DNA of 64,000 nucleotides from the NCBI GenBank assembly GCA_963822445.1, contig CAWGHO010000003.1, positions 1,792,333-1,856,332 of the forward strand, given 5' to 3'. The position numbers and the translations under genes are program-made. The notes beneath the pieces were generated by a model that worked only from the letters and a program-made list of their open reading frames with translations, made no database searches and was not told where the DNA came from. This document shows, piece after piece, positions 6,720 through 64,000 of this stretch. The stretch comes from an uncultured Acidobacteriota bacterium. GTDB taxonomy: Bacteria; Acidobacteriota; Thermoanaerobaculia; Gp7-AA8. How positions within the stretch are numbered: position 1 is the stretch's first letter; the number at the start of each line of letters is the position of its first letter.

Positions 6720-6782
6720 GCGGCTTATACTCGCACGAGTCTTCGCTCCAAAAAATCCGGCTTCGCGCTAAGAGGTAAATGT

Positions 6783-9700
6783 ATGCAAAAGCGGAAGAAA
6801 ATCGCCACGGGAGCGGCATTGGCGATGGGCGCGGTCCTCGCGCCGGAGGCGGTCGAAGCTGCAGTGATCACCGTCAACAGCACTGCCGATACCGCGGCGG
6901 TCGACGCGCAGTGCACTCTGCGCGAGGCCATCACCAACGCCAACGCCAACGCGGCAACCGAAGTCGATTGCGCGGCCGGCACGGGCCTCGACACGATCGA
7001 CTTCGCGCTCACCCTTCCGGCCACGATCACGCTGTCGGGCACTTCCCTGTCGATCGTCGATCCGCTGATCATCGACGGCCCCGGCCAGACCGATCTCACC
7101 ATCGACGCGAACGACGCCTCCCGGATCTTCGAGATTGCGGACGGCGACTCCGGCACGTCGATGACGGTCGAGATCAACGACCTCACGCTTGCCAACGGCA
7201 ACGACGCCACCGAATCGTTTCCCGGTGGCGGCGCGATCCTCAGCGCCGAAACTCTCGTCATCACCAACGTGACCTTTTCGGGCAACGACGGTGCTGCCGG
7301 CGGTGCGATCTATCTGTACTCCCCCTCGAATCCGAACCTGACCGTGACCGGCTCGACCTTCACCGGAAACACTTCGGCTGCCGACGGCGGCGCGATCCTG
7401 GCGGTGGGCGGCGACGTCACGATCACCGGCTCCACACTGACGCTCAACACCGCCCTCTGCTGCGGCGGCGCGATCAAAAAGATCGAAGGGGCCTTCACCC
7501 TCACCGATTCGACCGTCACCGGGAACTCCGCGACCATCGGCGGCGGCATCGCGCTGTACTACACGGACACGACGACCATCACCAACTCCACCATCAGCGG
7601 CAACGAGGCGCTCCTTTCCGGCGGCGGTCTCTATTTCTATGGGCCGGCCGGGCTGGTCACCATCGAGGATTCGGTCATCAGCGCGAACGAGGCGGCCTAC
7701 GGCGGCGGCGTTTGGCTTTCGTATGCGGGCGAGAGCCCGGTCGTCATCCGCGACACCGAGATCAGCGGCAATACCGCCACTGATTCGGCCGGCGGCTTGT
7801 ACCTCTACGACGTCGACGACGTCACCCTCGAACGGGTCCGCCTGATCAACAACACCGCCGACGCGTACGACGGCGGCGGAGCGCTCTGGGATGCCAAAGT
7901 CACCATCATCGAGTCGCAGATCAGCGGCAATCAGGCGCCGATCGTCGGCGGGTTGTACGTGGCTTATGGCAGCTACCTGTATCTGATCAACTCCACGGTC
8001 GCGAACAACACCGCCAGTACCGGTTCGGTCGGCGGTCTCGGAATCAACTTTTCCTTCGCGGCCATCGACGTCTCGACCATCTCCGGCAACAGCGCACCAG
8101 CCGGCGCCGCCGGAAACATCTTCAGCTACGGCTCAGGTCTGTACATCACCAACTCCATCGTCGCCAACGGAATCGCGTTAGCGGGGCCCGACCTCGTGAC
8201 CGCGACGTCGACCGTCGAGATCAACTACTCGCTGATCGAGGACACCGCCGGCGCCTCGTTCACCGGCTCGAACAACATCACCGGCGTCGATCCGCAACTT
8301 GGACCGCTGCAGAACAACGGCGGGCCGACCGAGACCGTGAAGCCGGCGCCGGCGAGCCCCGTCGTGAACGCGGGCGATCCCCTGTACACCACGCCGCCCA
8401 ACGACCAGCGCGGCTTCCCCCGGCCGGTCGGCATCGTCGACATGGGCGCGGTGGAGCTCAGTCCCGGTGTCCTCGACATCTCCGCGGCGAATGCCGTCGG
8501 AGAAGGCGCGGGCTTCATCACCATCACCGTGACCCGCACCGGCGGATCGGACGGCGCGGCCTCGGTGAACTACACGACCAACAGCGGCACCGCCACCTCC
8601 GGCGCCGACTTCACCGCGACCGCGGGCACGCTGAACTGGGCCGACGGAGACGCGGCGCCGAAGTCGTTCAACGTCAACATCACCGACGACCTCATCTTCG
8701 AGGGCAACGAGCAATTCACGGTCACCCTGAGCGGCGCGACCGTCGCGACGCTCGGCGCGGACACGGCGCTCATCACCATCACCGACAACGACGCCGCACC
8801 GACGATCTCCATCAACGACACCGGCAATACCGAGGGCTCGAACGTCGTCTTCAACGTCACCCTCTCCAATCCGACCACGCAGACGGTGACGGTCGACTTC
8901 GCGACCGCCGGCGTCACGGCCGCGTCGGGCGTCGACTTCACGGCGAACAGCGGCACGATCACCTTCAACCCGCTCGTCACCAGCCAGCCGATCACCATCG
9001 TCACCACGCAGGACGCGATCGACGAGCCGAACGAGACCTTCAACGTCGTGCTGACCAATCCCAACGCCAACGCGACGATCTTCGACGGCACCGGCGTCGG
9101 CACGATCACCGACGACGATCCCACGCCGACGATCTCCATCAACGACGCCGGGCAGACCGAGGGGACGAATATCGTTTTCCAGGTCACGTTGTCGGGGGCG
9201 AGCTCGGAGACGATCACCGTCGACTTCGCGACCGCCGCCGTCACCGCAACGTCAGGGACCGATTTCACCGCGAACAGCGGCACCATCACCTTCACTCCGG
9301 GCGATACGAGCGAGCAGATCACGGTTGTCACCGCGCAGGACGCGGTCGACGAGGCCAACGAGACCTTCAACGTCAACCTCACCAATCCCAGCGCCGGCGC
9401 AACGATTCTCGACGGTACGGGCGTGGGAACGATTGGCGATGACGATCCGTCGCCGACGATCTCCATCGGCGATTCGGGGGCCCTCGAGGGTGCGAACGTC
9501 GTGTTCAACGTCACGCTGTCCGCGCCGACCGAGCAGGTCGTCACCGTCGACTTCGCGACAGCCGGCAACACCGCGACGTCGGGCGTCGACTTCACGCCGA
9601 ACAGCGGCACGCTGACCTTCAACCCGCTCGTCACCAGTCAACAGATCACCGTCGCGACCAGTCCGGACGGGTTCGACGAGCCGAACGAGACCTTCAACGT

Positions 9701-10571
9701 CGTGCTCACCAATCCGAACGCAAACGCGGTCCTCCTCGACGACACCGCCATCGGCACGATCACCGACGATGACGGCGCGCCTGCGCTGAGCATCGACGAC
9801 GTCACGCTCGCCGAAGGGAACGCCGGCACGACCAACTTCGTCTTCAACGTCACCCTCGCGCCGGCGAGCGGACAGACAGTCACCGTCGATTACACGACCA
9901 GCGGCGGCGACGCCACGGCCGGCAGCGACTACACGCCGACGTCCGGTACGCTCACGTTCACGCCCGGCGACACCAGCGAGACCATCACCGTAACGGTAGC
10001 CGGCGACACGAGCATCGAGCCGACCGAGACGTTCAACGTCGTGCTCTCGAATGCGCCGCTCGCTGCAATCACGGACGCCACCGGTCAGGGCACGATCACC
10101 AACGACGACGTCGCGCCGGTCGCTGACCTGAGCCTGACCAAAGCCGTCGTCGGCAGCGGACCGTTCGTCGTCGGCCAGAACGCGACGTTCACGATCACGC
10201 TTTCGAATGCCGGTCCCGACGCGGCCGCGAATGCGACCGTCACCGACATCCTCCCCGCCGGAACGACGTTCGTCTCGGCGACGCCAACCAGCGGAACGTG
10301 CAACGGAACGACGACCGTGATCTGCAACGTGGGAACGCTCGCCAACGGCGCGAACGCGACTGTCACGCTGACTGTGCAACTCAACACGCCCGGGACCATC
10401 ACCAACACGGCCACGGGCGCCTCCGAAGCCGGCGACCTCTCCCCCGCCCTCGGCACCGCCGCGATCAACGTGACCGCCGCCGCCGAAGGCGTTGCCATTC
10501 CGACGCTTTCGCAGTGGATGCTGATTGCCCTCGCCGCAGCCCTGGCTTGTTTAGGAGTGCGGCGGCCCTAG
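6783..10571 (+). CDS. giant secreted protein: signal peptide, CSLREA (choice-of-anchor Q) motif, right-handed parallel beta-helix repeats, 5 Calx-beta domains, DUF11-like domain, C-terminal IPTL-CTERM-type sorting signal
   Basis: Signal peptide MQKRKKIATGAALAMGAVLAPEAVEA; AAGAGG RBS upstream of the ATG at 6783. CTLREAITNANAN motif; GGAIY/GGAIL beta-helix repeats; five VDFATAG..ATSG.DFT..SGT.TF....TS..ITV...D...EPNETFNV repeats (Calx-beta); DUF11-like segment LSLTKAVVGSGPFVVGQNATFTITLSNAGPDAA; C-terminus IPTLSQWMLIALAAALACLGVRRP. The ORF extends upstream to 5694, but that part is antisense to the preceding gene. Confidence 0.8.
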   Translation: MQKRKKIATGAALAMGAVLAPEAVEAAVITVNSTADTAAVDAQCTLREAITNANANAATEVDCAAGTGLDTIDFALTLPATITLSGTSLSIVDPLIIDGPGQTDLTIDANDASRIFEIADGDSGTSMTVEINDLTLANGNDATESFPGGGAILSAETLVITNVTFSGNDGAAGGAIYLYSPSNPNLTVTGSTFTGNTSAADGGAILAVGGDVTITGSTLTLNTALCCGGAIKKIEGAFTLTDSTVTGNSATIGGGIALYYTDTTTITNSTISGNEALLSGGGLYFYGPAGLVTIEDSVISANEAAYGGGVWLSYAGESPVVIRDTEISGNTATDSAGGLYLYDVDDVTLERVRLINNTADAYDGGGALWDAKVTIIESQISGNQAPIVGGLYVAYGSYLYLINSTVANNTASTGSVGGLGINFSFAAIDVSTISGNSAPAGAAGNIFSYGSGLYITNSIVANGIALAGPDLVTATSTVEINYSLIEDTAGASFTGSNNITGVDPQLGPLQNNGGPTETVKPAPASPVVNAGDPLYTTPPNDQRGFPRPVGIVDMGAVELSPGVLDISAANAVGEGAGFITITVTRTGGSDGAASVNYTTNSGTATSGADFTATAGTLNWADGDAAPKSFNVNITDDLIFEGNEQFTVTLSGATVATLGADTALITITDNDAAPTISINDTGNTEGSNVVFNVTLSNPTTQTVTVDFATAGVTAASGVDFTANSGTITFNPLVTSQPITIVTTQDAIDEPNETFNVVLTNPNANATIFDGTGVGTITDDDPTPTISINDAGQTEGTNIVFQVTLSGASSETITVDFATAAVTATSGTDFTANSGTITFTPGDTSEQITVVTAQDAVDEANETFNVNLTNPSAGATILDGTGVGTIGDDDPSPTISIGDSGALEGANVVFNVTLSAPTEQVVTVDFATAGNTATSGVDFTPNSGTLTFNPLVTSQQITVATSPDGFDEPNETFNVVLTNPNANAVLLDDTAIGTITDDDGAPALSIDDVTLAEGNAGTTNFVFNVTLAPASGQTVTVDYTTSGGDATAGSDYTPTSGTLTFTPGDTSETITVTVAGDTSIEPTETFNVVLSNAPLAAITDATGQGTITNDDVAPVADLSLTKAVVGSGPFVVGQNATFTITLSNAGPDAAANATVTDILPAGTTFVSATPTSGTCNGTTTVICNVGTLANGANATVTLTVQLNTPGTITNTATGASEAGDLSPALGTAAINVTAAAEGVAIPTLSQWMLIALAAALACLGVRRP

Positions 10572-10625
10572 CCGCCGCTTTGCGATCCCTTCGCAAAGCG
10601 GCGGCTCTGCCGCCGCACTCCTATA
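10550..10625. repeat. palindromic repeat element, copy A (TTTAGGAGTGCGGCGGC...GCCGCCGCACTCCTATA); contains the stop codon and last ~7 codons of the upstream giant gene
   Basis: Nested inverted repeats GGAGT/ACTCC, GCGGCGGC/GCCGCCGC (twice), central CGCTTTG...CAAAGCG; shares its ends and internal stems with copies at 12586, 48136 and 56861. Confidence 0.8.
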
Positions 10626-10633
10626 CTTTCCCT

Positions 10634-12581: not shown

Positions 12582-12585
12582 AGTT

Positions 12586-12640
12586 GGAGTGCGGCGACTC
12601 TGTCGCCGCTTTCAAAGCGGTGGCAGAGCCACCGCACTCC
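12586..12640. repeat. palindromic repeat element, copy B, in the divergent promoter region between the sigma factor and the peptidase gene
   Basis: GGAGTGCGGCGAC-TCT-GTCGCCGC-TTTCAAA-GCGGTGGC-AGA-GCCACCGC-ACTCC; begins 5 nt upstream of the sigma-factor start codon. Confidence 0.8.
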
Positions 12641-12662
12641 ATTAGAGCCAGGAAGTAGCCAG

Positions 12663-15557: not shown

Positions 15558-16456
15558 CCCCCATCAATAAACGAGCTGGCGTCCGCCCGGAGTGGCTGAA
15601 GATCCGCGTGCCGGGCGACCTCGCTTCGCTCCCCGTGTCGCAGCTCATGAACGACCTGCGGCTGAACACTGTCTGCCAGGAAGCGCGCTGCCCGAACATC
15701 TTCGAATGCTGGACCGCGGGCACCGCGACGTTCATGGTCCTCGGCGAGATCTGCACGCGGCGCTGCACCTTCTGCGCGGTCGGCCGCGGCGAGCCGCTCG
15801 TTGCCGATGGCGACGAGCCGCGGCGCGTGGCCGAAGCGGTTGCGGCGATGGGCGTCAAACACGCGGTCATCACCATGGTCAATCGCGACGACATGGCGGA
15901 CGGCGGCGCGGAGCATGTCGCGGAGACTGTTCGCTCCGTGCGCGATCGCACGGGAGCTGCGGTGGAAGTGCTGATCTCCGACCTCGAAGGAAACCGCGAC
16001 GCGTTGCGCACCGTGATGGCTTCGCAGCCGGAAGTGCTCGCGCACAATGTCGAGACCGTGCCGCGGCTCTACGCGCAAGTGCGTCCCGTCGCGAAGTACC
16101 AGCGCTCGATCGAACTGCTCCGCTGGGCTCACGAAGAACGCGCCGAGGGAATGCTCACCAAGTCCAGCATCATGCTCGGCCTCGGCGAAACGGAAGAGGA
16201 GATCCTCGCCGTCGCCCGCGATCTCCGCGAAGCCGGGGTGGACATCTTCACCATGGGCCAATACCTCGCCCCGAGCGAGAAAAATCACCCCGTCCGCCGC
16301 TACTACACCCCCGACGAATTCGCGGAGCTCGGCCGCCAGGCCCGGGCCCTCGGCTTTCACCACGTGGAGAGCGCGCCGCTGGTGCGGAGCTCGTACATGG
16401 CGCACAGGGCAGTACGCGCGCCTGACGACGCGCTCGCAGTGGGCAGTGGGCAGTAG
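15554..16456 (+). CDS. lipA: lipoyl synthase LipA
   Basis: Radical-SAM and Fe-S cysteine motifs (CQEARCPNIFEC; CTRRCTFCAV); start ATG overlaps the lipB stop (ATGA). Confidence 0.9.
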   Translation: MTPINKRAGVRPEWLKIRVPGDLASLPVSQLMNDLRLNTVCQEARCPNIFECWTAGTATFMVLGEICTRRCTFCAVGRGEPLVADGDEPRRVAEAVAAMGVKHAVITMVNRDDMADGGAEHVAETVRSVRDRTGAAVEVLISDLEGNRDALRTVMASQPEVLAHNVETVPRLYAQVRPVAKYQRSIELLRWAHEERAEGMLTKSSIMLGLGETEEEILAVARDLREAGVDIFTMGQYLAPSEKNHPVRRYYTPDEFAELGRQARALGFHHVESAPLVRSSYMAHRAVRAPDDALAVGSGQ

Positions 16457-16531
16457 GCAGGCCCACCCGCCCGCGGGGAGAAGTGCAACGTGGTTGGGCG
16501 GTGGCCCACTGCCTACTGCCCACTGCCTGCT
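16436..16531. repeat. long imperfect hairpin built from GTGGGCA/GTAGGCA heptamers (family 2, copy 1); encodes the last residues and stop of lipA
   Basis: 5' arm GCAGTGGGCAGTGGGCAGTAGGCAGGCCCACC; 3' arm GGTGGCCCACTGCCTACTGCCCACTGCCTGC; ~24-nt loop. Confidence 0.7.
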
Positions 16532-16576
16532 GCGAGCGCCCGCAGGGCGCGTACTGACTGCTAGAATCCCGGCCCG

Positions 16577-47382: not shown

Positions 47383-48138
47383 ATGAAGACCACAATGCCT
47401 CGTGTCGGGTGGGTTGGCAGGCTGATGGCCTTGCCTATCCTCCTTTCCCTCCTCACCGCCTGTTCCACGACCACGGTCGTGGCCACGCCGCCCGTGCCGG
47501 TCTCGGATGACGAAGATTTCAGCGATCTCATCGCCCAGATGCGGGCCGATCTGACCCGCCGCAAGAGCCGCGAGGTGGTCCAGACCGCGACGACGACGCC
47601 GACGGTCGACACGAAGAAGCAGCGCGACAAAGAGTTCGCCGCCCGGGCCCAGGAGCTGTGCGCGCCTCTCTCCCGCGCTTCCCTGGCCATGCCGGTCGTC
47701 GGCGTGCAGCCGTACGACCTCTACAACAGCTGGGGGCAACCGCGCGACGGCGGCCGCCGGAAACACCGCGGTATCGACATCTTCGCGCCGAAAGGCACGG
47801 GCGTCGTCGCAGTCGCGGACGGAATCATCAGCTTCATCGGCGAGCAGCCGAAAGGCGGCCAGTGCATCTGGCTGACCACCGAAGCCGGTGCCTCGTTCTA
47901 CTACGCGCATCTCGATCGCTGGGCACCCGGCCTCTACGAAGGCATGGAAGTCCGCACCGGCGATCTTCTCGGCTACGTCGGCAACACCGGCAACGCCAAG
48001 ACCACCCCTCCGCATCTCCATTTCGGGATCAACGACAACGACGAAATGGTGAACCCCTACCCTGTCCTCGCGAAGGCAACGCCGGTCAAGCGCGCGCGGG
48101 TGATGGTGGAAGCGGGCGGCTCAATGGGCACGCGGTAG
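47383..48138 (+). CDS. M23 family metallopeptidase lipoprotein
   Basis: Lipobox LLTACS; HRGIDIFAP..., YAHL, TGNAKTTPPHLHF. Confidence 0.85.
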   Translation: MKTTMPRVGWVGRLMALPILLSLLTACSTTTVVATPPVPVSDDEDFSDLIAQMRADLTRRKSREVVQTATTTPTVDTKKQRDKEFAARAQELCAPLSRASLAMPVVGVQPYDLYNSWGQPRDGGRRKHRGIDIFAPKGTGVVAVADGIISFIGEQPKGGQCIWLTTEAGASFYYAHLDRWAPGLYEGMEVRTGDLLGYVGNTGNAKTTPPHLHFGINDNDEMVNPYPVLAKATPVKRARVMVEAGGSMGTR

Positions 48139-48226
48139 TGGAGTGCGGCGGCTCTGCCGCCGCTTTCACATCGCGCGGAGCGCGGCTCCGCCGCGTCTCA
48201 AAGCGGTGGCAGAGCCACCGCACTCC
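48136..48226. repeat. palindromic repeat element, copy C (expanded central loop), between convergent M23 peptidase and folK; supplies the folK stop and last ~9 codons
   Basis: TAGTGGAGTGCGGCGGC-TCT-GCCGCCGC-TTTCACA...TCTCAAA-GCGGTGGC-AGA-GCCACCGC-ACTCC. Confidence 0.8.
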
Positions 48227-48722
48227 AAACCTCGGCTAACGGCTCGATCACGAACGACCTCTCACGCGCCCGCGGATGCGGCAACGTCAGCGTCTTCGTC
48301 CGCAGACGATGACCGCCGTGCAGGATCAGATCGAGATCGATGACCCGCGGCTCGTTTTTCCCACCGCGGCGTTTGCGTCCGAGGCGGCTCTCGATCTCGA
48401 GAAGCGCATCCATCAACGCCTCCGGGTCGAGCGACGTGTACCCGCTCAAGACCATGTTCAGAAACGGCGGGGGCGGCGCGTCGACCGGCTCGGTCTCGTG
48501 AATCGAGCTGAGTCGCACGACTCGCACGATATCGCCTAGAGCGTGAACGGCACGAAGCAGGTTGTAGCGGCGGTCGCCGAGGTTCGAGCCGAGGGCGATG
48601 ACAACAGAGCTAGTGATGCTCGATGTTGATGTCGTTGGTGAGCTCGTTGACGTCGGCGTGCGCGCGCGGGAAGTAGTGCCGGAGCTCTTCCCCCGCGCTG
48701 TGAATGGCTTCGACGATGCCAT
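48198..48722 (-). CDS. folK: 2-amino-4-hydroxy-6-hydroxymethyldihydropteridine pyrophosphokinase
   Basis: VVIALGSNLGDR...PFLNMVL...PRVIDLDLIL signature. No ATG/GTG/TTG between the Ser/Thr-rich 38-aa N-terminal extension and the conserved core, so the start is uncertain and the ORF overlaps the upstream TPM gene by 112 nt. Confidence 0.7.
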   Translation of the reverse strand: MASSKPFTARGKSSGTTSRARTPTSTSSPTTSTSSITSSVVIALGSNLGDRRYNLLRAVHALGDIVRVVRLSSIHETEPVDAPPPPFLNMVLSGYTSLDPEALMDALLEIESRLGRKRRGGKNEPRVIDLDLILHGGHRLRTKTLTLPHPRARERSFVIEPLAEVWSAVALPPL

Positions 48723-54573: not shown

Positions 54574-56364
54574 CTACGGGCGTCGTGGACCCCACACCAG
54601 CATGGTCAGTTTGAGGACCTGTTCGCGCGGCGGATCGACGTCGATGCGCAGCAGATTGGCCGGCCGTCCCTGCACGTCGTAGTCGCGATCGACGAAGCCG
54701 GGAGCACGCGCGATCCGGTCGATGACCTGGCCGTTGAAGGTGATGGTCACGTTCGCGTTGTCGTGCACGTTGAACGCGAGACGGAGCTTGGCGTCCCCTT
54801 CGACTCGCGGGAGTTGGATGGCCGACGTTCCCGACATCCATCGCCATTCGAATCGCCCCGAGCGCTCCGGCGCACTCCAGCCGCTCACGAATCGCGGTCG
54901 CGCGATCAGAGGCCGCAAGGCAACGTCGTAGTAGTAGTGACGGGTGATGTTCCAGAGGTTGCCCCGCTCCCGCGCGAAGAGCGTCCCGCCACTTCCCCCT
55001 CCCCGCGCCTCGGCAAGCACGATGGCCCGATGCCCGTTCGTCGTCAGCGGCATGGCCCTCTCCTCGGCCACCTGCAGAAACCCCAGTTGCGGCGCAAGGT
55101 ACTCGACGAACGGCACCATGCTGAAGCCGACATACAACTGATCGCGCACCGGATGAATTTGCGCGGCCGCAGCCTCGATCGCGCGCACCGGCGGCGATTT
55201 TTCGTTGCGCACCGGCGTGAGCGCGGGCCAGGTCCAGAGCACGAATGCGGCGATGAGCGCCGCGGCGACGACGCTCTCGTACTTGCGCGCCGCGCGTGAG
55301 ATGCCGTACGCGGCGAGGATCGCAAACAACGGCGCGTAGCCGATCGAGAAGCGGTTGACGCTGAAGCGGTCGAGCATCAGCCAGGTCATGACCGCCACCG
55401 GCGCAAAGGTCAGCGCCGCGTACAACACCGGTTTCTCGCGCGATCGAATGGCCGCCACGACGCCGAACAGCACGAAGATCGAGGTGATGATGCTCAGCGG
55501 CCGCGATTGGTACTGCAGCAGAAAAAAGCGATCGAAAAGACGCCAGAGCGGCGGGCGGTCGGGACTGCGGAACGAATCGACGCGGGCGATGTAGTCGCCA
55601 TGCTCGCGAACGGCGCGCATGTAGCGATCGATCCCGCCGGTCGCTTCGGCGGCGAACCAGAATGCGCCGCCGGCGATGGTGATGCCGAGGATCGCGGCGA
55701 GGGCGACGTCGCGCCAGTCCTTTCGGGCGCGATACCAGGTCGCGAAAAGGCCCGGCGCCAGTCCGATGAGGATGTTCTGCGGACGGATCCCGATGGCGAT
55801 GGCCAGCAGGAATGTGCCGAGGAGGTACCACTCTGAGCCGCGGCAGCCGCGGAAGAGAAGCGCGGCAGCCAGCGACGCGATGACGATCCCCGGGACGTCG
55901 CTCAGCGCCGTGCCGCCGAAGAACCAGACGTTCGGGAAGAACGCGCAGAGCGTCGCCGCCGTCGCCGCAACGGCGAAGCGGAAGCGGAGCTCGCGCGCGA
56001 GGAGGAAGATCGAGGGAAAAAGGAAGACGCCCGCCGTCAGACTGATCGACTGCAGCGCGCGGAAGTCGCTGCCCACGATCAAGCGCGCGACTTTGGCCAT
56101 GGCCATGAACGCGGGGAATCCCGGCGGATGGGGATGATGGCTGCTGACGTCGTACGCGCGCATCCCCAGGCAGAAAAGCGCTTCGTCCCAGCCCCAGATG
56201 GATCGGGCCATGGCCGCGAAGCGCGTGGCCGCGCAGAGCACGGCCAGGACCCAGAGGATGGTCCATTGGCGGCGCGTCAATGGGTCGGGAGGCTGAAGCA
56301 GATTCAAACGGGGGCGAATGTTACGCTGCCGGTCAATGCTCCGACGCGTGGTCATCCTGGCCAT
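54574..56364 (-). CDS. membrane glycosyltransferase of the ArnT/PMT (GT39/GT83-like, GT-C fold) family
   Basis: TM1 followed by the WGWDEALF loop motif, >10 TM helices, soluble C-terminal domain; start uncertain (ATG 56364 overlaps the divergent gene; an in-frame TTG lies at 56280). Confidence 0.7.
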   Translation of the reverse strand: MARMTTRRSIDRQRNIRPRLNLLQPPDPLTRRQWTILWVLAVLCAATRFAAMARSIWGWDEALFCLGMRAYDVSSHHPHPPGFPAFMAMAKVARLIVGSDFRALQSISLTAGVFLFPSIFLLARELRFRFAVAATAATLCAFFPNVWFFGGTALSDVPGIVIASLAAALLFRGCRGSEWYLLGTFLLAIAIGIRPQNILIGLAPGLFATWYRARKDWRDVALAAILGITIAGGAFWFAAEATGGIDRYMRAVREHGDYIARVDSFRSPDRPPLWRLFDRFFLLQYQSRPLSIITSIFVLFGVVAAIRSREKPVLYAALTFAPVAVMTWLMLDRFSVNRFSIGYAPLFAILAAYGISRAARKYESVVAAALIAAFVLWTWPALTPVRNEKSPPVRAIEAAAAQIHPVRDQLYVGFSMVPFVEYLAPQLGFLQVAEERAMPLTTNGHRAIVLAEARGGGSGGTLFARERGNLWNITRHYYYDVALRPLIARPRFVSGWSAPERSGRFEWRWMSGTSAIQLPRVEGDAKLRLAFNVHDNANVTITFNGQVIDRIARAPGFVDRDYDVQGRPANLLRIDVDPPREQVLKLTMLVWGPRRP

Positions 56365-57655
56365 CCTGTCGACCGCCGTGCGCGTCTGGCTCGCCCACCA
56401 CTACTACGGGTTCGAGACCGGTGACGACGTGGAGATCGCGCAGGAAGCGTTCCGCGCCGCGCTGGGGCTCGATTACGCGCCCTGGAACATCCGCAATCTC
56501 TTCGTCTCGAACGCGCTCGTCGCGCCGCTGCTGCAGATCGCGTCGCTCTTCGGCGTCACCGATCCCTTCGCGCTGGCGACGCTGGCCCGCTATCCGTTCA
56601 TCCTGTTCGCCGGAGTGAACGTCCTCCTGGTCTACTTCCTCGGCCGCCAGTGGTTTTCGGAGGAAGCGGGCTTTCTCGCCGCGGCGCTCTATTCGATTCA
56701 CTGGCTGCCGCTGGTGTTCGGGAGCTCGCTCTATCCGCGGATTCCGGGGACGACGTTTCTTTTGCTGGCGGCGCTGGCCGGACATTTCCCCGCCGGCTGG
56801 CTCGCTTCGCTCGCGTTCGCGATGAGGTACAGCGAGATCGTGTTTCTGCTTCCGTTGCTGTTTAGGAGTGCGGCGGCAGGGCCGCCGCTTTCCTACCAAA
56901 GCGGCGACTGGCGCCGCCGCACTCCTAAACTGGTCGGCGGCTTCGCACTGGGCGTCCTCCTCTTCGTCGGCCTCTACGACTGGCTCTCTTGGGGCCGCCC
57001 GTTCGCGAGCCTCATCGAGTTCGCGCGCTACACGCTCATCGCCCGCGAGTCCTCATCGCTCGTCAAAGCGCAGCCGCCCTGGTGGTACATCGCCGCGCTA
57101 CCGCAGTGGCTCGCGCCACCGCTTTGGCCGTTCCTTTGGCGTGAGAAAAAGAAAGCGCTCGCGTTCATCGTCCTGCCCGTGATCGCCCTCAGCCTCATCC
57201 ATCACAAGGAGCTGCGCTATCTGCAGGCGGTCATTCCCTTCGCCATGATCCTCGCCGCGGCAGGCGCGCTGGCCTGGTGGAAGGAGGGCCGGCGCAAGCT
57301 GGTGATCGTGCTGCTGATCCTCGCCCTGCCCCTTCAGCTCGCGCGCATTCGCTCGATCGAAAAGCGGACCATGGCCGCCGTCGATGCCGCCCGCTCCATG
57401 CAATCCGCGAATCGCGTCGCTTTGTCGCAAGAGTGGGCGTACGGGGGAAGACTCTTTCTGCACAACGTCGAGGAGCTGGGGATTCCGCCGGATGTGGCGC
57501 GGCTGCGCGAGGCTGCGCCGCGAGTCGATTGCGTGGCGATGTATCGGAGTCAGATCACGCCGGAGATGCGGGCGATCGTCGCGGAGGCAGGATTGACGAC
57601 TGCGCGCGGCTTCGAGCGCGCGCGCAGTCGTCCGGTGGACGTCTTCTGCCGGTGA
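56318..57655 (+). CDS. polytopic membrane protein, GT-C-type glycosyltransferase-like, carrying an in-frame 69-nt palindromic-element insertion
   Basis: ~10 TM helices, HHYYGFETGDDVE loop; continuous ORF through repeat copy D (56861-56929), which encodes LFRSAAAGPPLSYQSGDWRRRTPK. Confidence 0.5.
   Translation: MLRCRSMLRRVVILAILSTAVRVWLAHHYYGFETGDDVEIAQEAFRAALGLDYAPWNIRNLFVSNALVAPLLQIASLFGVTDPFALATLARYPFILFAGVNVLLVYFLGRQWFSEEAGFLAAALYSIHWLPLVFGSSLYPRIPGTTFLLLAALAGHFPAGWLASLAFAMRYSEIVFLLPLLFRSAAAGPPLSYQSGDWRRRTPKLVGGFALGVLLFVGLYDWLSWGRPFASLIEFARYTLIARESSSLVKAQPPWWYIAALPQWLAPPLWPFLWREKKKALAFIVLPVIALSLIHHKELRYLQAVIPFAMILAAAGALAWWKEGRRKLVIVLLILALPLQLARIRSIEKRTMAAVDAARSMQSANRVALSQEWAYGGRLFLHNVEELGIPPDVARLREAAPRVDCVAMYRSQITPEMRAIVAEAGLTTARGFERARSRPVDVFCR
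56861..56929. repeat. palindromic repeat element, copy D, inserted in-frame (69 nt = 23 codons) inside a coding sequence
   Basis: TTTAGGAGTGCGGCGGC-AGG-GCCGCCGC-TTTCCTACCAAA-GCGGCGAC-TGGC-GCCGCCGC-ACTCCTAAA; flanked by CTG on both sides. Confidence 0.8.
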
Positions 57656-60600
57656 TTACTTCCTCGCGTGAACGTTCATCGATCCTCCGTCGAGTGCCTG
57701 CTGGGAGGCCTTCAGACCGTTCCAGTTCGTGCTGAGCCAGAGGGCTCCGTCGGCGCTCCAGACCGTGGCCGCGAACGTGTCCGCATTGCCGGCATCCTTC
57801 AGGGACACGTGCAGACGGGCCGCCGGGTCGACGAGCACCGCCGCGTCGGCGTTGGTGACGTCTTCGATCCGCGCCGTGGCCAGCACTTCCGCCGACCCAC
57901 CACTCGGATTGACCTGAATGGCGGCGGCCTGCAACTCGGTGGTGGTGATGCGATAGGTGCGGACGACACCGCCGGCAGTGCGCTTCAGTTCGATTCGCAC
58001 CGATCCGGAGGCGCTCCGCTCGACGTTCTTCGCGTCGATGTTGATGTGAATCTTCGACCCCACGTCAGCCCCAAGGCGCCCGGCGCTCCGCGTGGCGACG
58101 AGGAATCCGGCTCCGGTGGTGAAGTCGCGTGTGGCCCGCTCGATGACGATGGTCACGTCGTCCGCCGCGGCGTTTCGAATGTAGTGCCCGCTCACGACGG
58201 TGCCAACGCCGATTGACGCGCGCGACGCCACATCGACCGTCGCCGTGCAGGTTGCGGTCGCGATGCGTGCATCGCTCGGGTCGAGCAACGCCAGGGCCGC
58301 GGTGCACAGCGCAGTGCCGGACAACCGATCGACGAACGTCACCGTGGCGTTCGCGACGTCGCCCGCGGCCGCGTCACCCGCCGCATCGGGAGTCGCGCTG
58401 ATGTCGGCGATCGTCGCGGCCAGGAGCAGCGTGGCAGTGGTGGATGTTTGACCGGACGGAGCCGCCACCGTGAGGCCGGTGTAAGCCGCCCGCGCATCCT
58501 CGGGCGTCACGGTGAGCGTGCCGGAAACGAAGGTGATGACGTAGTTGGTGCTGGTGAGGCCGGAGACCGAGACGGTGTAGGAGCCGGGTGCGCTCAGCGC
58601 GGTCGCGCTGGTCGCGAACAGCGGCAGGCCGCCGAGAACGGCCGGAGTCTCGCCGAGGACCAACCCGTCAACTGCGACGATGAACGGCGGCAGCGCGTCA
58701 CTGTACTGCTTCGCGCTGTCCACCACGCGTACCACCAGCGGCGACGGCAGCACCGCCAGCGTGGCCGGAACGATGGTCACGTTGTAGTTCGGCAAGCGGT
58801 TGGACGGATCGTTCAGAGAGGCGTTGATGGCATAGCTGCCGGTCGCGCTGGCGGCAGTCGCCGTGGTCGAGTACGAGGCGGTGACCGGGTCGCCGTTGAC
58901 GACGCCCGTCACTACGCCGGTGAGCGGCGGCAGCGGCGCGCCGTAGAGTTTCGACGCGGCGTTCACCGCGACGTGCAACGGAGCGCGAGTGACCATGATC
59001 GAAACGCTTGCACCGGCGGCAAGGTAGTTGTCAGTCGCGGCGGCCGTGACTTGCAGGACGTGCTGGCCGGCGTCGAGAACCGTTCCCACGGCAGGCGTGT
59101 ACGTCAGCAGTCCATGCGGTGCCGGTCCGGCGACGGAGACAGTCGCGTTGAGCTGCGCCGCGCCGAGGGCGGTGCCGTAGACGACGGAGGAGGGATTACT
59201 CCAGGCGATCGACTGAGCCGCCTTTTCGACAGTGACCTGCACTGCGGCTTCGGCGGCGTTGTAATTGGCGCCATCGGACGGCGCGAAGCGGACGCGCAGC
59301 GTGTGCGTGCCGGCGTCGAGGATCGTTCCGGCCGCGGGCGTGTAGACGAAGGCGCCCGCGACGTCGGCGGTCGCGTTGAGCTGCGCCGTGGAGAGCGCTC
59401 CGCCGTAGACGAATGCCGCCGGAGCCGGCCAGGTCAGAACCGGATCGGCTTTGCGCACGGTCAGCTCGACGGAGAGTGACGCGGCGGTGTAGTTGCCGGT
59501 TTCCGCCGCGTCGACGGTGAGGACGTGCGTACCGGCCGGGAGAAGCGTTCCGGCCACGGGGTTGTAGGTCAGCGCGCCGGCCGGGGAAGGTCCGGCGACG
59601 GAAACGGTCGCGTTGAGCTGCTGCGCGTCGAGACGCGTGCCGTAGACGATGGCGGCGGGATCGCTCCAGGCCAGCACCTGCGGCGCTTTGGTCACGACCA
59701 CCGTCACCGTCGCAGCGGCTGAGTTGTAGTTCGCCGGATCAGTCGGGGTGAAAGCGGCGCTGAGCATGTGCGCGCCGGCGTCGAGGACGGCCCCGGCTGC
59801 GGGTGTGTAGACGAACGTGCCGGACACGTCGGCCGTGGCGTTGAGCTGCGCCGATGACAGCGCGGTGCTGTAGACGATGTTCGCCGGATCGGCCCAGGTC
59901 AGGACCGGGGTCGCTTTGTTGACGGTGATGCTCACGCTCGAGGCCGCGGCGTTGTAATTCCCCCCGTCGTTCGGAGTGAACGTCGCATGGAGGGCGTGCG
60001 TCCCGGCGCTCAACACCGTTCCCGACGCGGGCGAGTACACAAACGTGCCCGGAACCGACGCGGTCGCGTTCAACTGCGACGCGGAGAGCGCGGTGCCATA
60101 GACGATCGCGGAGGGAGTGGCCCAACTGATCGACGGCGTGGCCTTGTTCACGACCAGCGACACCGTTGAGGTGGCGCCGTTGTAGTTCGCGGCGTCACTC
60201 GGGGTGAAGGTCGCGCTCAGCGAATGGGTGCCGGCGCTCAACACCGTTCCCGACGCGGGCGAGTACACGAACGTGCCCGGAACCGACGCGGTCGCGTTCA
60301 ACTGCGACGCGGAGAGCGCGGTGCCATAGACGATCGCGGAGGGAGTGGCCCAACTGATCGACGGCGTGGCCTTGTTCACGACCAGCGACATCGTTGAGGT
60401 GGCGCCGTTGTAGTTCGCGGCGTCACTCGGTGTGAAGGTCGCGCTCAGCGAATGGGTGCCGGCGCTCAGCACCGTTCCCGACGCGGGCGAGTAGGCGAAC
60501 GTCCCCGGAACCGACGCGGTCGCGTTCAACTGCGACGCGGAGAGCGGAGTGCCGTAAACGATCGCCGCGGGATTCGGCCAGGTGATCGACGGCGTGGCCT

Positions 60601-63600
60601 TGTTCACGAGCAGGCTCACCGTGGCAGTTGCCGCCTCGTAATTCGCGGTAGCCGCGGCGTTGGCGGTCAGCGTGTGCGTTCCGGCCGGGAGCACCGTTCC
60701 GGCCGCGGGGCTATACGTCAGCGCGCCGAGCGCGGTCGCGTTGAGCTGCGCGGTGCCGAGCGCCGTGCCGTATGGAATCGCTGCCGGTTGGGGCCAGGTG
60801 ATTTGCTGGGAGGCCTTGGAGACGACCAGCTGGACGGCGGCAGTGCCGCCGGTGTACGACGGATCGGCCGGCGTGAAAGTCGCTGTCAGCGTGTGCGTGC
60901 CGGCAGGCAGCACCGTTCCGGCCGCGGGCGTGTAGGTGAACGTGCCGGCGATGTCGGCGGTCGCGTCGAGTTGCGCCGCACCGAGGGGCGTGCCGTATGC
61001 AATCGACGCGGGAGGAGCCCACGCGATCGTCGCCGTGGCGCCACGAACGGTGATGAGGCGTGTCATCGTCGCCGTCGCGTAGTTGGTGGTGTTCGACGGA
61101 GTGAAGACCGCCTGCAGCGAATGCTCGCCGACCGGCAAAACCGTTCCGGACGGCGGGGCGTAGACGAACGATCCAGGCACGTCGGCGGTGGCGTTGAGTT
61201 GTGTGCTGCCGAGGGGCGTGCCGGCCACGATGCTTGCTGGATGGGGCCACGACAGAACCGGCACACCCTTGGTGATGGTGAGCGTTCCGGCGCGCGAGGC
61301 CGCAGGGTACGTGGTATCACCGGCGAAGCTGGCCACGACCGGATAGCTCCCGGCGTTGTACGTCCCGGCCACGGTGATCGAAGCGAAGCCGCCGCCGTCG
61401 GTCAGCGCGCTGCCGGCGGCGGCGCTGTTGATCTTGAAGGTGATCGTGCGGCCGGCGATCCCCTCCCCGTCCGAGGTGAGCTGCGCGTAGAGCGTGATCG
61501 ACGTTCCGTACGCGGCGGTGGCGTTCTGGAGGGTGACGCCCGACAGCGTCGGGGGCGCTTCCGGGGTTCCGCTTCCGCCCTGAATGGCCAGAGTCGGCTC
61601 GAGCTGTACCAGCGTCACGCTCGACTCCACCACGGTGTTGTTCATCACATCGATGCGCGTGCTGCCGTTGCTGCTCTGCCACAGCAGGTCGGGCTTGCCG
61701 TCGCCGCTGTAATCCTGCACGCCGACGATCGACCAGGACAGATCGTCATCGGTGGCGATGACCGCCTCGGTGCCGATGCGGCGCGCCGACAGCGGATCGT
61801 CGCCGCCGATCCGCGCCATCGACTGCACGTGCATGTGGTTCATGTACCAGACCTGGTTCTCGCCGCTGGCGCGGTTGCGCCAGACGAGGTCCGGGTCCTG
61901 ATCGCCGTCGAAGTCCTCGCTGCCGACGAGCTGCCACGATGAATTCATGGTCGGCAGCACGTACGCATTGTCCTCGCGCGCCGAATTGAGCGTGCGGACG
62001 AGCGTCTCGCCGGTGGCATAGTTGCGAACCACGAGATCGTCCTCGCCGTCGTTGTCGAAGTCGCCGACAGCGCCGATCTGCTCGTTTGGATCAGCGTGAA
62101 CCTCGATCGGCTGCTCGAGGGTCTTGACACCGTTCGACATCAGCCAGGCCTTGGTCTGGCCGGTGTTGCGATCGCGGAAGATGAGGTCGGGGTTGCCGTC
62201 GTTGTCGATGTCGCCGACGCCCTGGATCTGCTGGTTGGCGTCGGAAGGCTCCAGGGTCCACGTCGACGCGGTCCTGGTCTTGTCCATCATCCAGAGCGTT
62301 CCGTCGCCGGTTGCTGTCTCACGAATGATGACGTCCGACGAGCCGTCGTTGTTGAAGTCATGGCGCACGCTGCGCCGGCGTCCGGGATTGGCGTGGCGGA
62401 TGGTGATCATGGCGGTGCGGCTGTTGACCGTGCCGCAACTGTTGCCGACCTCCACCCAGTATTCGGTGGTCTCGTTCGGCCGGACGAAGAACGACCCGCC
62501 GGTGAGGCCCCAGAGACGCTGCGTGCGGTCGCCGGCCTTGCCGATGTACCAGACGTAGGTCGAGGCGTTGTCGGCGGAGACGCCGATGGTGGTCCCCTGG
62601 CCGCGCCGGAGCGTGGCCGAGCTGGGGTGATAGATGATGCGCGGCTTGCAGGACGGTCCGATGCCGAACGTCTCGCGCGCCGTGGTCAAGTCGGAGTCGG
62701 CCGTGATCGGACCGCCGGCGGGATCGCTGGAGGCAGCCCAATACTTGCCGTTCGCGGCCTCGATGACCACGCGGAATCCGTCGTGGATCGTCGCGCCGGG
62801 AACGATCCGTCCGGCGAAGGACATGAAGTGGACCGTGAACGTCGTCGCCGACGACGGCGAGCCGACGATGGAGAGCGTTCCGTCGGCCGCGGCCGAGAAG
62901 TAGCCGCCGTTGTCGTTCTGGATGTAGACCAGGTCGCCGCCGACGAGGGCGCCGGCATTGAAGTCGGTGAAGATCAGAGTCTGCGACGGGCCGAGGTTCG
63001 AAGAGGTCGCGGTGGCGGTGCCGGAGACGTAGTGATCGTTGTAGGTCTCGAGCGCGTAGTCGAGCTGGTTGTCGCCGACGACGCTCACCCGGGCCCGCGC
63101 TTCGACCTCGCCGCATGGCGTCGAGACGACCACGATGTATTCACGGGTGGCGGTCGGAGAGACCACCAGACCGGGCTCCGGTCCGTCCTGGATGGGCACG
63201 TGTCCGCTGGTCTGCCCGCCGACCGGTACCTCGTACCACTTGTAATTCATCACACCGCGGCCGGAGGCATCGACCATGAGGGTGGCCGGATCGCCGCGGT
63301 TGACCGTCTGCCACTCCGGAGCCTTGTTGATGCGTGGCGCCGCGCACGTCACCGTCACCAGCGCGTGCTGGCTGCGGACGCTCGTGCAGGCGTTGCTGAC
63401 CTTGACCCAGTAGTAGCCGGACTCGTTCGGCGCGCGGATGCGGAGCTGAGGGCCGGTCTGGCCGGTGATCGGTCCGGACTCGTCTTCTTCCTGTCCGTCG
63501 TACCACTGATAGGTGACGCCGGCCGATGAAGTGACGTCGACGTCGAGGGTGAAAAAGTCGCCCGCGTCGGCAACGACCGGGTCCGGATGGTCGCGGATCA

Positions 63601-64000
63601 GGATGGAGGGACAGGCCGTCGCGGACGCGCAGCCGGCGCCGCATTCGACCGGCGGATAAGGCAGTTTCTGCAGCCAGTCGGTAATGGCTTTCTTCGGCGC
63701 GGTGAAGCCCGCCCGCCAGATGCCCGTCGAGTCTTCGAAGTCTGCGATTCTGTAGATGAAGGCCTTGGTGATGTTCCAGTTCGCCCACTCGTCACAGCCG
63801 TCGTCGTGCGCGCCGGACATCACCTCCACGGAGCGGCGCAGCCGCTCCATCTGCAGTTTTTCGTCCTCGTGCTCGCTGTTCGGGAGGGTGAAGCGCCAGA
63901 AGCTGTTCTTGACCTCGGAGAGATATCCGAACTCGCTGATCCACAGCTCTTTTCCGGCCAGTGCGGGAGCCTGGCGCCGCATCGCGCGGACGGCGGAGTT
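57656..64000 (-). CDS. giant (>2100 aa) cell-surface protein, 5' end outside the window: GH5-like remnant, Ig-like domains, 5 FG-GAP/VCBS repeats, >=12 tandem ~78-aa Ig-like (MBG/YDG-type) repeats, C-terminal beta-rich domains
   Basis: FG-GAP repeats (DFNNDGSSDVIIR, DIDNDGNPDLIFR, DFDNDGEDDLVVR, DFDGDQDPDLVWR, DYSGDGKPDLLW); repeated AIVYGTALSASQLNATASVPGTFVYSPASGTVLSAGTHSLSATFTPSDAANYNGAT units; the frame stays open upstream of the ATG at 63982 to the window edge. Confidence 0.8.
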   Translation of the reverse strand, partial: NSAVRAMRRQAPALAGKELWISEFGYLSEVKNSFWRFTLPNSEHEDEKLQMERLRRSVEVMSGAHDDGCDEWANWNITKAFIYRIADFEDSTGIWRAGFTAPKKAITDWLQKLPYPPVECGAGCASATACPSILIRDHPDPVVADAGDFFTLDVDVTSSAGVTYQWYDGQEEDESGPITGQTGPQLRIRAPNESGYYWVKVSNACTSVRSQHALVTVTCAAPRINKAPEWQTVNRGDPATLMVDASGRGVMNYKWYEVPVGGQTSGHVPIQDGPEPGLVVSPTATREYIVVVSTPCGEVEARARVSVVGDNQLDYALETYNDHYVSGTATATSSNLGPSQTLIFTDFNAGALVGGDLVYIQNDNGGYFSAAADGTLSIVGSPSSATTFTVHFMSFAGRIVPGATIHDGFRVVIEAANGKYWAASSDPAGGPITADSDLTTARETFGIGPSCKPRIIYHPSSATLRRGQGTTIGVSADNASTYVWYIGKAGDRTQRLWGLTGGSFFVRPNETTEYWVEVGNSCGTVNSRTAMITIRHANPGRRRSVRHDFNNDGSSDVIIRETATGDGTLWMMDKTRTASTWTLEPSDANQQIQGVGDIDNDGNPDLIFRDRNTGQTKAWLMSNGVKTLEQPIEVHADPNEQIGAVGDFDNDGEDDLVVRNYATGETLVRTLNSAREDNAYVLPTMNSSWQLVGSEDFDGDQDPDLVWRNRASGENQVWYMNHMHVQSMARIGGDDPLSARRIGTEAVIATDDDLSWSIVGVQDYSGDGKPDLLWQSSNGSTRIDVMNNTVVESSVTLVQLEPTLAIQGGSGTPEAPPTLSGVTLQNATAAYGTSITLYAQLTSDGEGIAGRTITFKINSAAAGSALTDGGGFASITVAGTYNAGSYPVVASFAGDTTYPAASRAGTLTITKGVPVLSWPHPASIVAGTPLGSTQLNATADVPGSFVYAPPSGTVLPVGEHSLQAVFTPSNTTNYATATMTRLITVRGATATIAWAPPASIAYGTPLGAAQLDATADIAGTFTYTPAAGTVLPAGTHTLTATFTPADPSYTGGTAAVQLVVSKASQQITWPQPAAIPYGTALGTAQLNATALGALTYSPAAGTVLPAGTHTLTANAAATANYEAATATVSLLVNKATPSITWPNPAAIVYGTPLSASQLNATASVPGTFAYSPASGTVLSAGTHSLSATFTPSDAANYNGATSTMSLVVNKATPSISWATPSAIVYGTALSASQLNATASVPGTFVYSPASGTVLSAGTHSLSATFTPSDAANYNGATSTVSLVVNKATPSISWATPSAIVYGTALSASQLNATASVPGTFVYSPASGTVLSAGTHALHATFTPNDGGNYNAAASSVSITVNKATPVLTWADPANIVYSTALSSAQLNATADVSGTFVYTPAAGAVLDAGAHMLSAAFTPTDPANYNSAAATVTVVVTKAPQVLAWSDPAAIVYGTRLDAQQLNATVSVAGPSPAGALTYNPVAGTLLPAGTHVLTVDAAETGNYTAASLSVELTVRKADPVLTWPAPAAFVYGGALSTAQLNATADVAGAFVYTPAAGTILDAGTHTLRVRFAPSDGANYNAAEAAVQVTVEKAAQSIAWSNPSSVVYGTALGAAQLNATVSVAGPAPHGLLTYTPAVGTVLDAGQHVLQVTAAATDNYLAAGASVSIMVTRAPLHVAVNAASKLYGAPLPPLTGVVTGVVNGDPVTASYSTTATAASATGSYAINASLNDPSNRLPNYNVTIVPATLAVLPSPLVVRVVDSAKQYSDALPPFIVAVDGLVLGETPAVLGGLPLFATSATALSAPGSYTVSVSGLTSTNYVITFVSGTLTVTPEDARAAYTGLTVAAPSGQTSTTATLLLAATIADISATPDAAGDAAAGDVANATVTFVDRLSGTALCTAALALLDPSDARIATATCTATVDVASRASIGVGTVVSGHYIRNAAADDVTIVIERATRDFTTGAGFLVATRSAGRLGADVGSKIHINIDAKNVERSASGSVRIELKRTAGGVVRTYRITTTELQAAAIQVNPSGGSAEVLATARIEDVTNADAAVLVDPAARLHVSLKDAGNADTFAATVWSADGALWLSTNWNGLKASQQALDGGSMNVHARK
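60003..60700. repeat. three near-identical 234-bp tandem DNA repeats (coding Ig-like repeat units) inside the giant gene
   Basis: Units 60003-60236, 60237-60470, 60471-~60700 differ by only a few substitutions. Confidence 0.8.

Follow-up and report, generated by a model that had tools for sequence, protein, structure and literature searches.

How does a dispersed palindromic repeat come to encode part of a working membrane enzyme without disturbing its reading frame? This question is raised by a stretch of 64,000 nucleotides (hereafter the window) on contig CAWGHO010000003.1 from an uncultured Acidobacteriota bacterium of the class Thermoanaerobaculia, in which a 69-nt palindrome, here called element D, lies inside a gene for a glycosyltransferase of family GT22. 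The element is composed of two units that resemble repetitive extragenic palindromic (REP) sequences in inverted orientation, and thus looks like a REPIN, that is, an inverted doublet of REP units. In our view, element D quite probably replaced 6–7 loop codons of a functional GT22 gene, with the frame kept and the resulting allele later recombined between lineages. The original prediction, made from the letters of the window alone, had described a copy of a dispersed palindromic element of 69 nt in an intact open reading frame (ORF) of 445 aa, which was borne out by the terminal repeats, the hairpin, and three further copies (A, B, and C) in the window. The element, its parts, and its host gene are arranged as follows.

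56861–56929, plus strand: element D, a REPIN-like inverted pair of REP-like units, with the sequence TTTAGGAGTGCGGCGGCAGGGCCGCCGCTTTCCTACCAAAGCGGCGACTGGCGCCGCCGCACTCCTAAA (69 nt, 23 codons)

56861–56891, plus strand: left REP unit of element D, consisting of TTTA, the tag GGAGT, the stem GCGGCGGC, the loop AGG, the stem GCCGCCGC, and the tail TTT

56892–56897, plus strand: spacer CCTACC between both units, which serves as the apical loop when the long hairpin folds

56898–56929, minus strand: right REP unit of element D, inverted, reading TTTA, GGAGT, GCGGCGGC, GCCA, GTCGCCGC, and TTT on the minus strand

56336–57655, plus strand: GT22 (ALG9/ALG12/PIG-B-like) GT-C membrane glycosyltransferase, 439 aa from Met7

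The 17-nt termini of element D are perfect inverted repeats, and the palindrome even reaches one base further on each side (G56860 and C56930). As RNA, the element folds into a single long hairpin (−60 kcal/mol, z = −6.9), and a long hairpin is likewise obtained for the DNA (−35.4 kcal/mol, z = −8.9). Its left unit agrees with the family consensus T-W-T GGAGT GCGGYGRC loop GYCRCCGC TTT, and the right unit contains one stem mismatch in the window and in the orthologous locus L003 but is perfect in the orthologous loci L004 and L005. No stop codon occurs in the reading frame of the host. The 23 codons yield the peptide FRSAAAGPPLSYQSGDWRRRTPK (residues 182–204 of the 445-aa ORF), from which the tryptic peptide SAAAGPPLSYQSGDWR is predicted; the peptide string given originally does contain this insert, although its 24 residues include the preceding host Leu.

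The host ORF is open without interruption from 56318 to 57655 (445 aa), and the database protein P0001 begins at Met7 (439 aa). A Pfam match to Glyco_transf_22 (PF03901; E 4.5e-14, 52.9 bits as compared to a cutoff of 23.8) confirmed that the element resides in frame in a membrane glycosyltransferase-like coding sequence (CDS), as had been proposed. Searches of NCBIfam gave no match for the host protein or its upstream neighbor, and no GT-C protein was matched when the PDB sequences were searched with the family profile. An AF2 model of the protein based on 30 homologs (mean predicted local distance difference test score, pLDDT, 89.4) shows a helix pattern compatible with 11 transmembrane (TM) helices and a C-terminal domain, and the best Foldseek matches to this model are ALG12 (9s6t_A) and ALG9 (9s6u_A), both with a TM-score of 0.73, followed by ArnT and oligosaccharyltransferases. 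The host protein belongs to family GT22 and represents a bacterial enzyme of the GT-C type. Its gene is alive and under purifying selection: pairwise comparisons of the six orthologs with DNA gave ratios of nonsynonymous to synonymous divergence (dN/dS) of 0.10–0.17 at a synonymous divergence (dS) of 0.33–0.80, the window protein keeps all 54 of the 54 invariant columns of the family alignment, and the insert-bearing ORF is uninterrupted in five independent assemblies. The gene is thus no pseudogene, an objection that the original prediction had raised against itself.

The origin of the insert is best seen from the orthologs. The closest relative (P0004, encoded at L001; 92 % amino acid identity outside the insert) has an empty site, and the homologs at ~73–79 % identity in the 30-homolog alignment all feature a short loop of the type PLxxxGGxxVxxGF without the element. 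The extra segment is found in the window protein as well as in P0002, P0003, and P0005 (83–88 % identity). At the DNA level, the alleles read as follows.

Empty allele, L001: CCG TTG ATG ATC GCG GGC GGG GCG ATC AGA GTG GTT GCG GGG TTC

Empty allele, L131: CCG CTC GTG ATG CTG GGC GGG CTC AAC GTG ATC GCG GGA TTC

Filled allele, window, L003, and L004: CCG YTN CTG, the 69-nt element, CTG NTY ... TTC

The two empty loops (..GGC GGG..) are homologous to each other, which indicates that the empty state is ancestral. The junctions are identical in the window, L003, L004, and L005; in the last of these, 6 nt have been lost in frame at the left junction. Element D replaced 6–7 host codons (IAGGAIR in L001), with a net gain of 16–17 codons (+48 nt as compared to L001), and since the element carries no in-frame stop and the length changed overall by a multiple of three, the reading frame survived. 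The 23-residue insertion that an ortholog alignment had been expected to reveal is accordingly absent from P0004 and from the ~73–79 % relatives, but the net gain amounts to only 16–17 residues. Nor is the insertion unique to this genome, as had been supposed: three other lineages have the same insert and a fifth has a different member of the same family. CTG borders element D on both sides (56858–56860 and 56930–56932), also in L003 and L004, and had been read as a possible target duplication. The flanking CTGs are real, but the pair aligns with two distinct codons of the empty alleles (Met/Val and Val) that lie 6–7 codons apart, and a 3-bp target-site duplication was rejected on the grounds of these different codons in L001 and L131. 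Copies A, B, and C and the elements in L006, L038, and L129 (see below) have no matching flanks.

In the structural model, the insert is preceded by a helix at residues 171–186 and followed by another at 198–225, with pLDDT values below 50 at residues 189–195, in line with the earlier placement of the insert in a loop between predicted TM helices. The ends of the insert are modeled to lengthen both flanking helices by about one turn, and its middle forms an 11-residue disordered Arg-rich loop. In enzymes of family GT22, the N terminus is cytosolic, the TM helices number 11 and include a conserved 7-TM module, and the C-terminal domain is luminal; the ligands of the donor phosphate in ALG12 reside in the first luminal loop, the TM5–TM6 loop (R185), and the TM9–TM10 loop (R312) (PMC13503287). 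In the alignment of 30 homologs, G35, D36, and E39 are invariant and D37 is nearly so, and R59, R170 (in MRYSE), and R300 (in HHKELRYLQ) are invariant as well; judged by sequence position, these acidic and Arg residues appear to be placed analogously to E35, R67, R185, and R312 of ALG12. As the three invariant arginines fall at places analogous to the ALG12 ligands, helix 171–186 would correspond to TM6 and helix 198–225 to TM7, and the insert would be situated in the loop between them. This loop is most likely cytoplasmic and thus opposite the periplasmic active site. Distant orthologs with RR in the TM6–TM7 loop agree with the cytoplasmic side, as does the resulting topology, which places every Lys/Arg cluster (N terminus, REKKK, and KEGRRK) inside.

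Element D belongs to a family of repeats that is present both in the window and in numerous public genomes. With up to 3 mismatches allowed, the 64-kb window contains the terminal 17-mer of D 6 times as compared to 0.28 times expected, and none of 100 shuffles reached 6 occurrences. In total, the window contains four family elements (A–D) with 8 units, and all of these copies as well as the one in L006 fold into long hairpins (z from −6 to −13.6). The three other copies are the following.

10549–10626: copy A, whose termini (TTTAGGAGTGCGGCGGC) are identical to those of D and which runs into the 3′ end of the ORF at 5694–10571

~12584–12643: copy B, a compact form with a 3-nt spacer, located between divergent genes

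~48135–48232: copy C, a long form whose spacer contains an additional internal hairpin and which resembles the variant in the GT22 gene of L006

Copy A provides the ORF at 5694–10571 (plus strand, 1625 aa) with its final codons (LGVRRP, including the basic cluster) and with its TAG stop, which is located in the loop of the left unit of the copy. The tail of this 1625-aa ORF, AIPTLSQWMLIALAAALACLGVRRP*, resembles a sorting signal of the IPTL-CTERM type. Between copies A and B lie two genes unrelated to transposase, one for a presumably DUF1028-like protein, as read from its translation, and one for what looks like an ECF-type (extracytoplasmic function) sigma factor. A GTAG near copy C is merely an upstream chance occurrence.

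The family unit is 27–31 nt long and consists of a T-rich flank, the GGAGT tag, an 8-bp GC stem (GCGGYGRC), a loop of 3–4 nt, the complementary stem, and a TTT tail. A half-unit pattern with 24 specified bases was scanned against public genomes (one genome per species) and found at no fewer than 119 loci; together with the window, the loci among the matches listed contain at least 254 units. In these 254 units, the stem variants GCGGCGGC, GCGGCGAC, GCGGTGAC, GCGGTGGC, and GCGGCAGC are accompanied by the exact complementary 3′ half in 83–94 % of cases, which represents covariation, with the pairing of the stem halves not imposed by the search pattern. Positions −3 to −1 of the unit read T-W-T in 60–84 % of units. 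Altogether, 83 inverted doublets with cores of 53–218 nt were found in the listed loci and the window, and their core lengths are evenly split modulo 3 (27, 32, and 24). The majority of cores are open in at least 3 of the 6 frames, so that any net change of 3n keeps the frame of a host gene open, and in-frame survival is hence a filter rather than a matter of design. With true coding context recognized by a codon-position GC signature on both flanks (position 3 well above position 1, and 1 above 2), only 1 of ~71 paired elements in unrelated loci (~1–2 %) was intragenic in a true CDS. The family is overwhelmingly intergenic, and in-frame residence is rare but recurrent.

Most of the listed matches (at least 119 loci) stem from metagenome-assembled genomes (MAGs) of Thermoanaerobaculia, and the remaining ones are labeled as Planctomycetota, Verrucomicrobiota (Opitutia, Udaeobacter), Victivallales, Sphaerobacter, Methylomirabilota, Blastocatellia, and Acidoferrales. 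Exact half-unit matches occur under the labels Planctomycetota, Verrucomicrobiota, Victivallales, Sphaerobacter (Chloroflexota), Methylomirabilota, and Brocadiia, where binning contamination is possible (loci L016, L017, L025, L026, L030, L034, L040, L042, L052, L099, L105, L111, L114, and L115). Such a breadth of phyla is unusually wide for a REP-type family. A metagenome scan with the D-specific right half of element D found this half in three longer intergenic elements (L126–L128) but in no additional GT22 carriers, and the central sequence of the D type does not occur among the other family loci (at least 119). An Rfam search of the whole window at gathering thresholds detected one tRNA only, and in an E-value search of the element D region, generic hairpins of the miRNA type were the only matches, all of them below threshold, with no described RNA family. 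A full-text literature search for the motif GGAGTGCGGC retrieved only unrelated primer and eukaryotic matches, a literature search on REPINs and their REP-associated tyrosine transposases (RAYTs) in these phyla yielded no description of the family, and the sequence GGAGTGCGG is absent from the supplement of PMC3733652, with the family not among its 28 REP families. The GGAGT-tagged REP-like family is thus apparently undescribed.

The sole true intragenic doublet in unrelated loci (L038, 7207–7261) is found, again in frame, in a gene for penicillin-binding protein 1C (PBP1C). It encodes MECGSKAAALKAAALPPHSK and replaces a variable loop, in place of which 10 other residues are found in the closest homologs P0121 and P0122 (79–81 % identity). 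In that loop, a different compact doublet is present in a second PBP1C lineage (P0125, L129 at ~712–770), where it is read in the same frame as in the GT22 gene and gives the peptide WSAAAMPPLSERRHGRRTPQ. Both PBP1C genes are from Thermoanaerobaculia, and the loop belongs to the transpeptidase region.

The carriers of the filled GT22 allele differ from each other by a dS of 0.53–0.80, which implies that this allele is old. The nucleotide identity between the window and L001 is 0.916 over most of the gene, yet only 0.847 in ~190 nt around the loop (the loop itself excluded), where 27 differences are found as compared to ~15 expected (P ~0.002) and L003 is the closest relative. Furthermore, a derived T-to-C change in the right unit is common to the window and L003, with the unit hairpin still perfect in L004 and L005. 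The mosaic tract and the shared change together indicate that a recombination tract of a few hundred bases, with a filled or empty loop, was moved between lineages. At exactly the host junctions of D, L006 (1329–1420; P0006, 83 % identity) harbors a different, longer family member (TGGAGTGCGGTGGCTCTGCCACCGCTTT ... GCCGCCGCACTCC), which encodes 29 aa (WSAVALPPLSNAAEPLRGTGNRRQEPPHS), with its right side read in another frame than in D. Its stem shows a compensatory variant (GCGGTGGC/GCCACCGC), and like window copy C it contains an additional internal hairpin. It is best explained by in situ replacement through conversion between elements, a second hit at a hotspot being less likely.

Two further orthologs deviate at this loop. 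In L130 (~840–890; P0010), it reads F-LAG-RRTPR-V (coded ..GGC CGC CGC ACA CCG AGG..) and is three codons longer than the other empty loops. The resemblance to the right end of D (GCCGCCGCACTCCTAAA, 13 of 17 nt) is only suggestive, and the loop may represent what erosion has left of an old insert's right end. P0007, an ortholog with 78 % identity, shows another insertion of ~29 aa (SGLPLVLSDLPSGLLTTAVPRDRWRVARALR) in that GT22 loop, as seen at the protein level only.

As DNA, element D is the most conserved 69-nt stretch of its host gene. When the window is compared with L003 and L004 (dS 0.53–0.70), 3 of its 69 sites are variable, while at least 6 (median 18) are variable in each of 372 host windows of that length. 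In pairwise comparison, differences are seen at 2 of 69 sites of the element as compared to 15–19 % of all sites and 31–37 % of third codon positions in the host (binomial P ~1e-3 to 2e-4), and 0.5–1 synonymous differences are found where ~6.5 would be expected by our own estimate (~17 synonymous sites times a p-distance of ~0.38). In addition, eight codons ending in A or T persist in the element, with a GC content at third codon positions of 0.65 as compared to 0.85 in the host. As the flanks diverge directly outside the element, this conservation is not accounted for by a larger tract having been transferred recently. The copy in L005 has 7 differences in 69 nt, which shows that decay is possible. 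Either the palindrome would be constrained as a nucleic acid or a homogenizing process would act on it, the comparison covering three or four carriers.

Taken together, these data are best accounted for by the following course of events. A REPIN-like doublet of a family abundant in Thermoanaerobaculia would have entered the short and sequence-tolerant cytoplasmic TM6–TM7 loop of a polyprenyl-phosphate-sugar-dependent GT22 glycosyltransferase in an ancestor of the lineage, displacing 6–7 codons. Only a frame-conserving event could have persisted, so that the outcome would reflect survivorship and not a coding adaptation of the element. The enzyme presumably tolerates the longer loop because its active site, donor groove, and long periplasmic loop are located across the membrane or elsewhere, and the peptide itself is presumably neutral. 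The filled allele would then have spread and been reshuffled between lineages by homologous recombination, with another family member taking its place in one of them. REP transposition of the IS200/IS605 or RAYT type proceeds without target duplication, and the lack of a duplication at element D fits such a process; mobilization was presumably achieved by a RAYT-type (IS200/IS605-like) or a recombinational mechanism. Several points weigh against parts of this account. Codons were replaced rather than an element cleanly inserted, and both this replacement and the exchange of members at identical junctions are matched by ectopic recombination or by template switching of GC-rich hairpins at least as well as by transposition. 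No RAYT was detected by tblastn in the window and ~0.9 Mb of loci, a weak search conducted with an E. coli query, and the tag GGAG(T) is unlike the GTAG or CGTC of the described REP superfamilies. The membrane side of the loop is derived from homology and the positive-inside rule. Finally, a merely tolerated passenger does not explain the very low nucleotide divergence of the insert.

This last point leads to the idea that the insert is kept by selection as a nucleic-acid structure in a coding loop, which is compatible with the above explanation of its origin and seems possible, if on balance doubtful. The palindrome could act as an mRNA hairpin (in stability, translation pausing, or membrane insertion) or as a DNA site for a host or transposase protein. 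The scarcity of variable sites relative to every host window, the low pairwise and synonymous divergence, the persisting A/T-ending codons, and the immediate divergence of the flanks all speak for such selection, and the D-specific center without a match among the other loci argues against homogenization by other copies. On the other hand, the carriers are only three or four and non-independent, the D type shows no compensatory changes, the L005 copy is decaying (including its 6-nt in-frame junction deletion), and a terminator and promoter scan of the host gene scored no sites; moreover, the different element in L006 indicates that turnover or conversion happens, and the right half found elsewhere means that donors for gene conversion exist. 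A broader proposal would combine a structure-selected intragenic hairpin with a GGAGT REP superfamily that extends across Acidobacteriota, Planctomycetota, Verrucomicrobiota, and other soil phyla and that time and again enters, and is exchanged in, the same variable loops of envelope enzymes (GT22 and PBP1C); as a whole, we consider it speculative and rather unlikely.

Other scenarios concern the origin of the filled alleles. They might derive from repeated independent, site-specific insertions at a loop hotspot instead of one ancestral event followed by recombination or conversion, and the presence of the D type and the long L006 type at exactly the same host junctions, the PBP1C loop with two different members in two lineages, and the empty site in the closest relative L001 would all be compatible with this. 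It is nevertheless improbable, in view of the identical junctions with the same 6–7 host codons missing in every carrier, the AGR loop, CCTACC spacer, and asymmetric right unit shared by the four D-type copies, and the mosaic tract that ties the window to L003. A classical MITE (a transposable element of the miniature inverted-repeat type), that is, a deleted insertion sequence with terminal inverted repeats and here a 3-bp CTG target-site duplication, would explain the CTG at both ends in the window, L003, and L004, but is very improbable: the empty alleles lack a single CTG at the site, six other family elements (A, B, C, L006, L038, and L129) are without matching flanks, and the element is made of two autonomous hairpin units with covarying stems. 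Scarcely credible, lastly, is that the insertion turned the gene into a pseudogene or that the segment is a native ancestral loop with coincidental palindromy. Nothing but the presence of foreign-looking sequence in the ORF speaks for these readings, which are contradicted by the low dN/dS in all carriers, the intact ORFs, the confident model, the orthologs without the segment, and the occurrence of the same DNA in intergenic positions.

In-frame palindromic inserts were first described in Rickettsia, as the Rickettsia palindromic elements (RPEs), in which the RPE-1 type measures ~100–150 bp. A 2024 review reports that nearly half of the RPEs were inserted in genomic ORFs, and it also names Coxiella, enterobacteria, and cyanobacteria as bearing in-frame MITEs (PMC10969869). 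Intragenic REPs are known from several phyla, with more than half of them being dimers or grouped repeats that encode 20–30 aa (Di Nocera et al. 2013, PMC3733652). In-frame REP dimers of this size occur in Opitutus, Thauera, Xanthomonas, and others, two Xanthomonas species carry different REPs at about the same place in their recB genes, and REP termini provide stop codons to adjacent ORFs (PMC3733652). The statement that such insertions are rare outside the Rickettsia-type lineages was therefore overstated, as in-frame REPs and MITEs are documented in both sources (PMC3733652, PMC10969869).

Element D works like the known intragenic REP dimers and is neither an RPE nor a target-duplicating MITE. 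With REPs and REPINs, its family shares the short GC-rich hairpin unit with a conserved 5′ tag, a 3-nt tail, and covarying stem variants, the arrangement mostly as inverted pairs folding into a long hairpin, and the numerous, dispersed, and mostly intergenic copies. Further likenesses are a terminus that supplies a stop codon (copy A), occasional in-frame dimers, and different members at the same orthologous site. Unlike these, the tag is (T)GGAGT and not GTAG or CGTC, the weak tblastn search mentioned above found no RAYT for the family, and the exact unit pattern occurs in MAGs labeled as several phyla. With a different tag and no RAYT known, we file the element as REP/REPIN-like and do not assign it to any REP family described so far. 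Similar to RPEs, it is a palindromic repeat in frame in a functional gene, with the peptide at a permissive place and retained across species. It differs from them in its length of 69 nt, the small share of intragenic copies (~1–2 %), the unrelated sequence, the different phylum (Thermoanaerobaculia/Acidobacteriota), and the host, which is a free-living GC-rich soil bacterium and not a reduced intracellular genome. Bacterial MITEs such as the Coxiella QMITE, ERIC, and Correia elements are likewise small non-autonomous repeats that create in-frame ORF fusions, but theirs are terminal inverted repeats derived from insertion sequences, usually with target-site duplications, whereas element D is a doublet of hairpin units without a duplication.

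An in-frame palindromic insertion is thus an event of a kind already known, and the points to follow are the exceptional conservation of the insert and the GGAGT-tagged family. The locus represents a clean and datable case of a repeat that became part of a protein in a soil bacterium with a free-living habit and high GC content, and not in one of the endosymbionts from which such events are best known, with empty, filled, eroded, and replaced alleles all on hand for comparison. If the slow evolution of the insert holds with more orthologs, selection or a homogenizing mechanism would be acting on a palindrome in a coding region, which would make sequence-level functions of REP-type elements testable. 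In practical terms, the inserts yield peptides of the types RSAAA..PPLS..RRTPK or ECG..PPHSK that can mislead the annotation and alignment of MAG proteins.

Some features around the host gene and elsewhere in the window may be added. Downstream of the glycosyltransferase gene, the window encodes a 2108-aa protein (57656–63982, minus strand) with many tandem repeats of ~228 nt (Ig-like) as well as FG-GAP/VCBS-like repeats. In L001, L004, L005, and L131, the convergent downstream gene is instead a PpiC-type rotamase that likewise abuts the stop codon, and the break in synteny falls precisely at the host gene's 3′ end. Upstream and divergent lies an ORF of 596 aa (54574–56364, minus strand) with many hydrophobic segments and no Pfam or NCBIfam match, which, as listed, overlaps the 5′ end of the glycosyltransferase ORF. 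The conserved neighbor in L003–L005 is a gene of 545–577 aa without a recorded Pfam match, and the cut neighbor in L131 has a PMT_2 match; the upstream ORF in the window may be a second, divergent GT-C enzyme. Outside the GGAGTGCGG family, an unrelated 31-nt inverted repeat is found at 16430–16460 and 16509–16539, with 94 % complementarity and a repeated heptamer (GGCAGTG/GGCAGTA).

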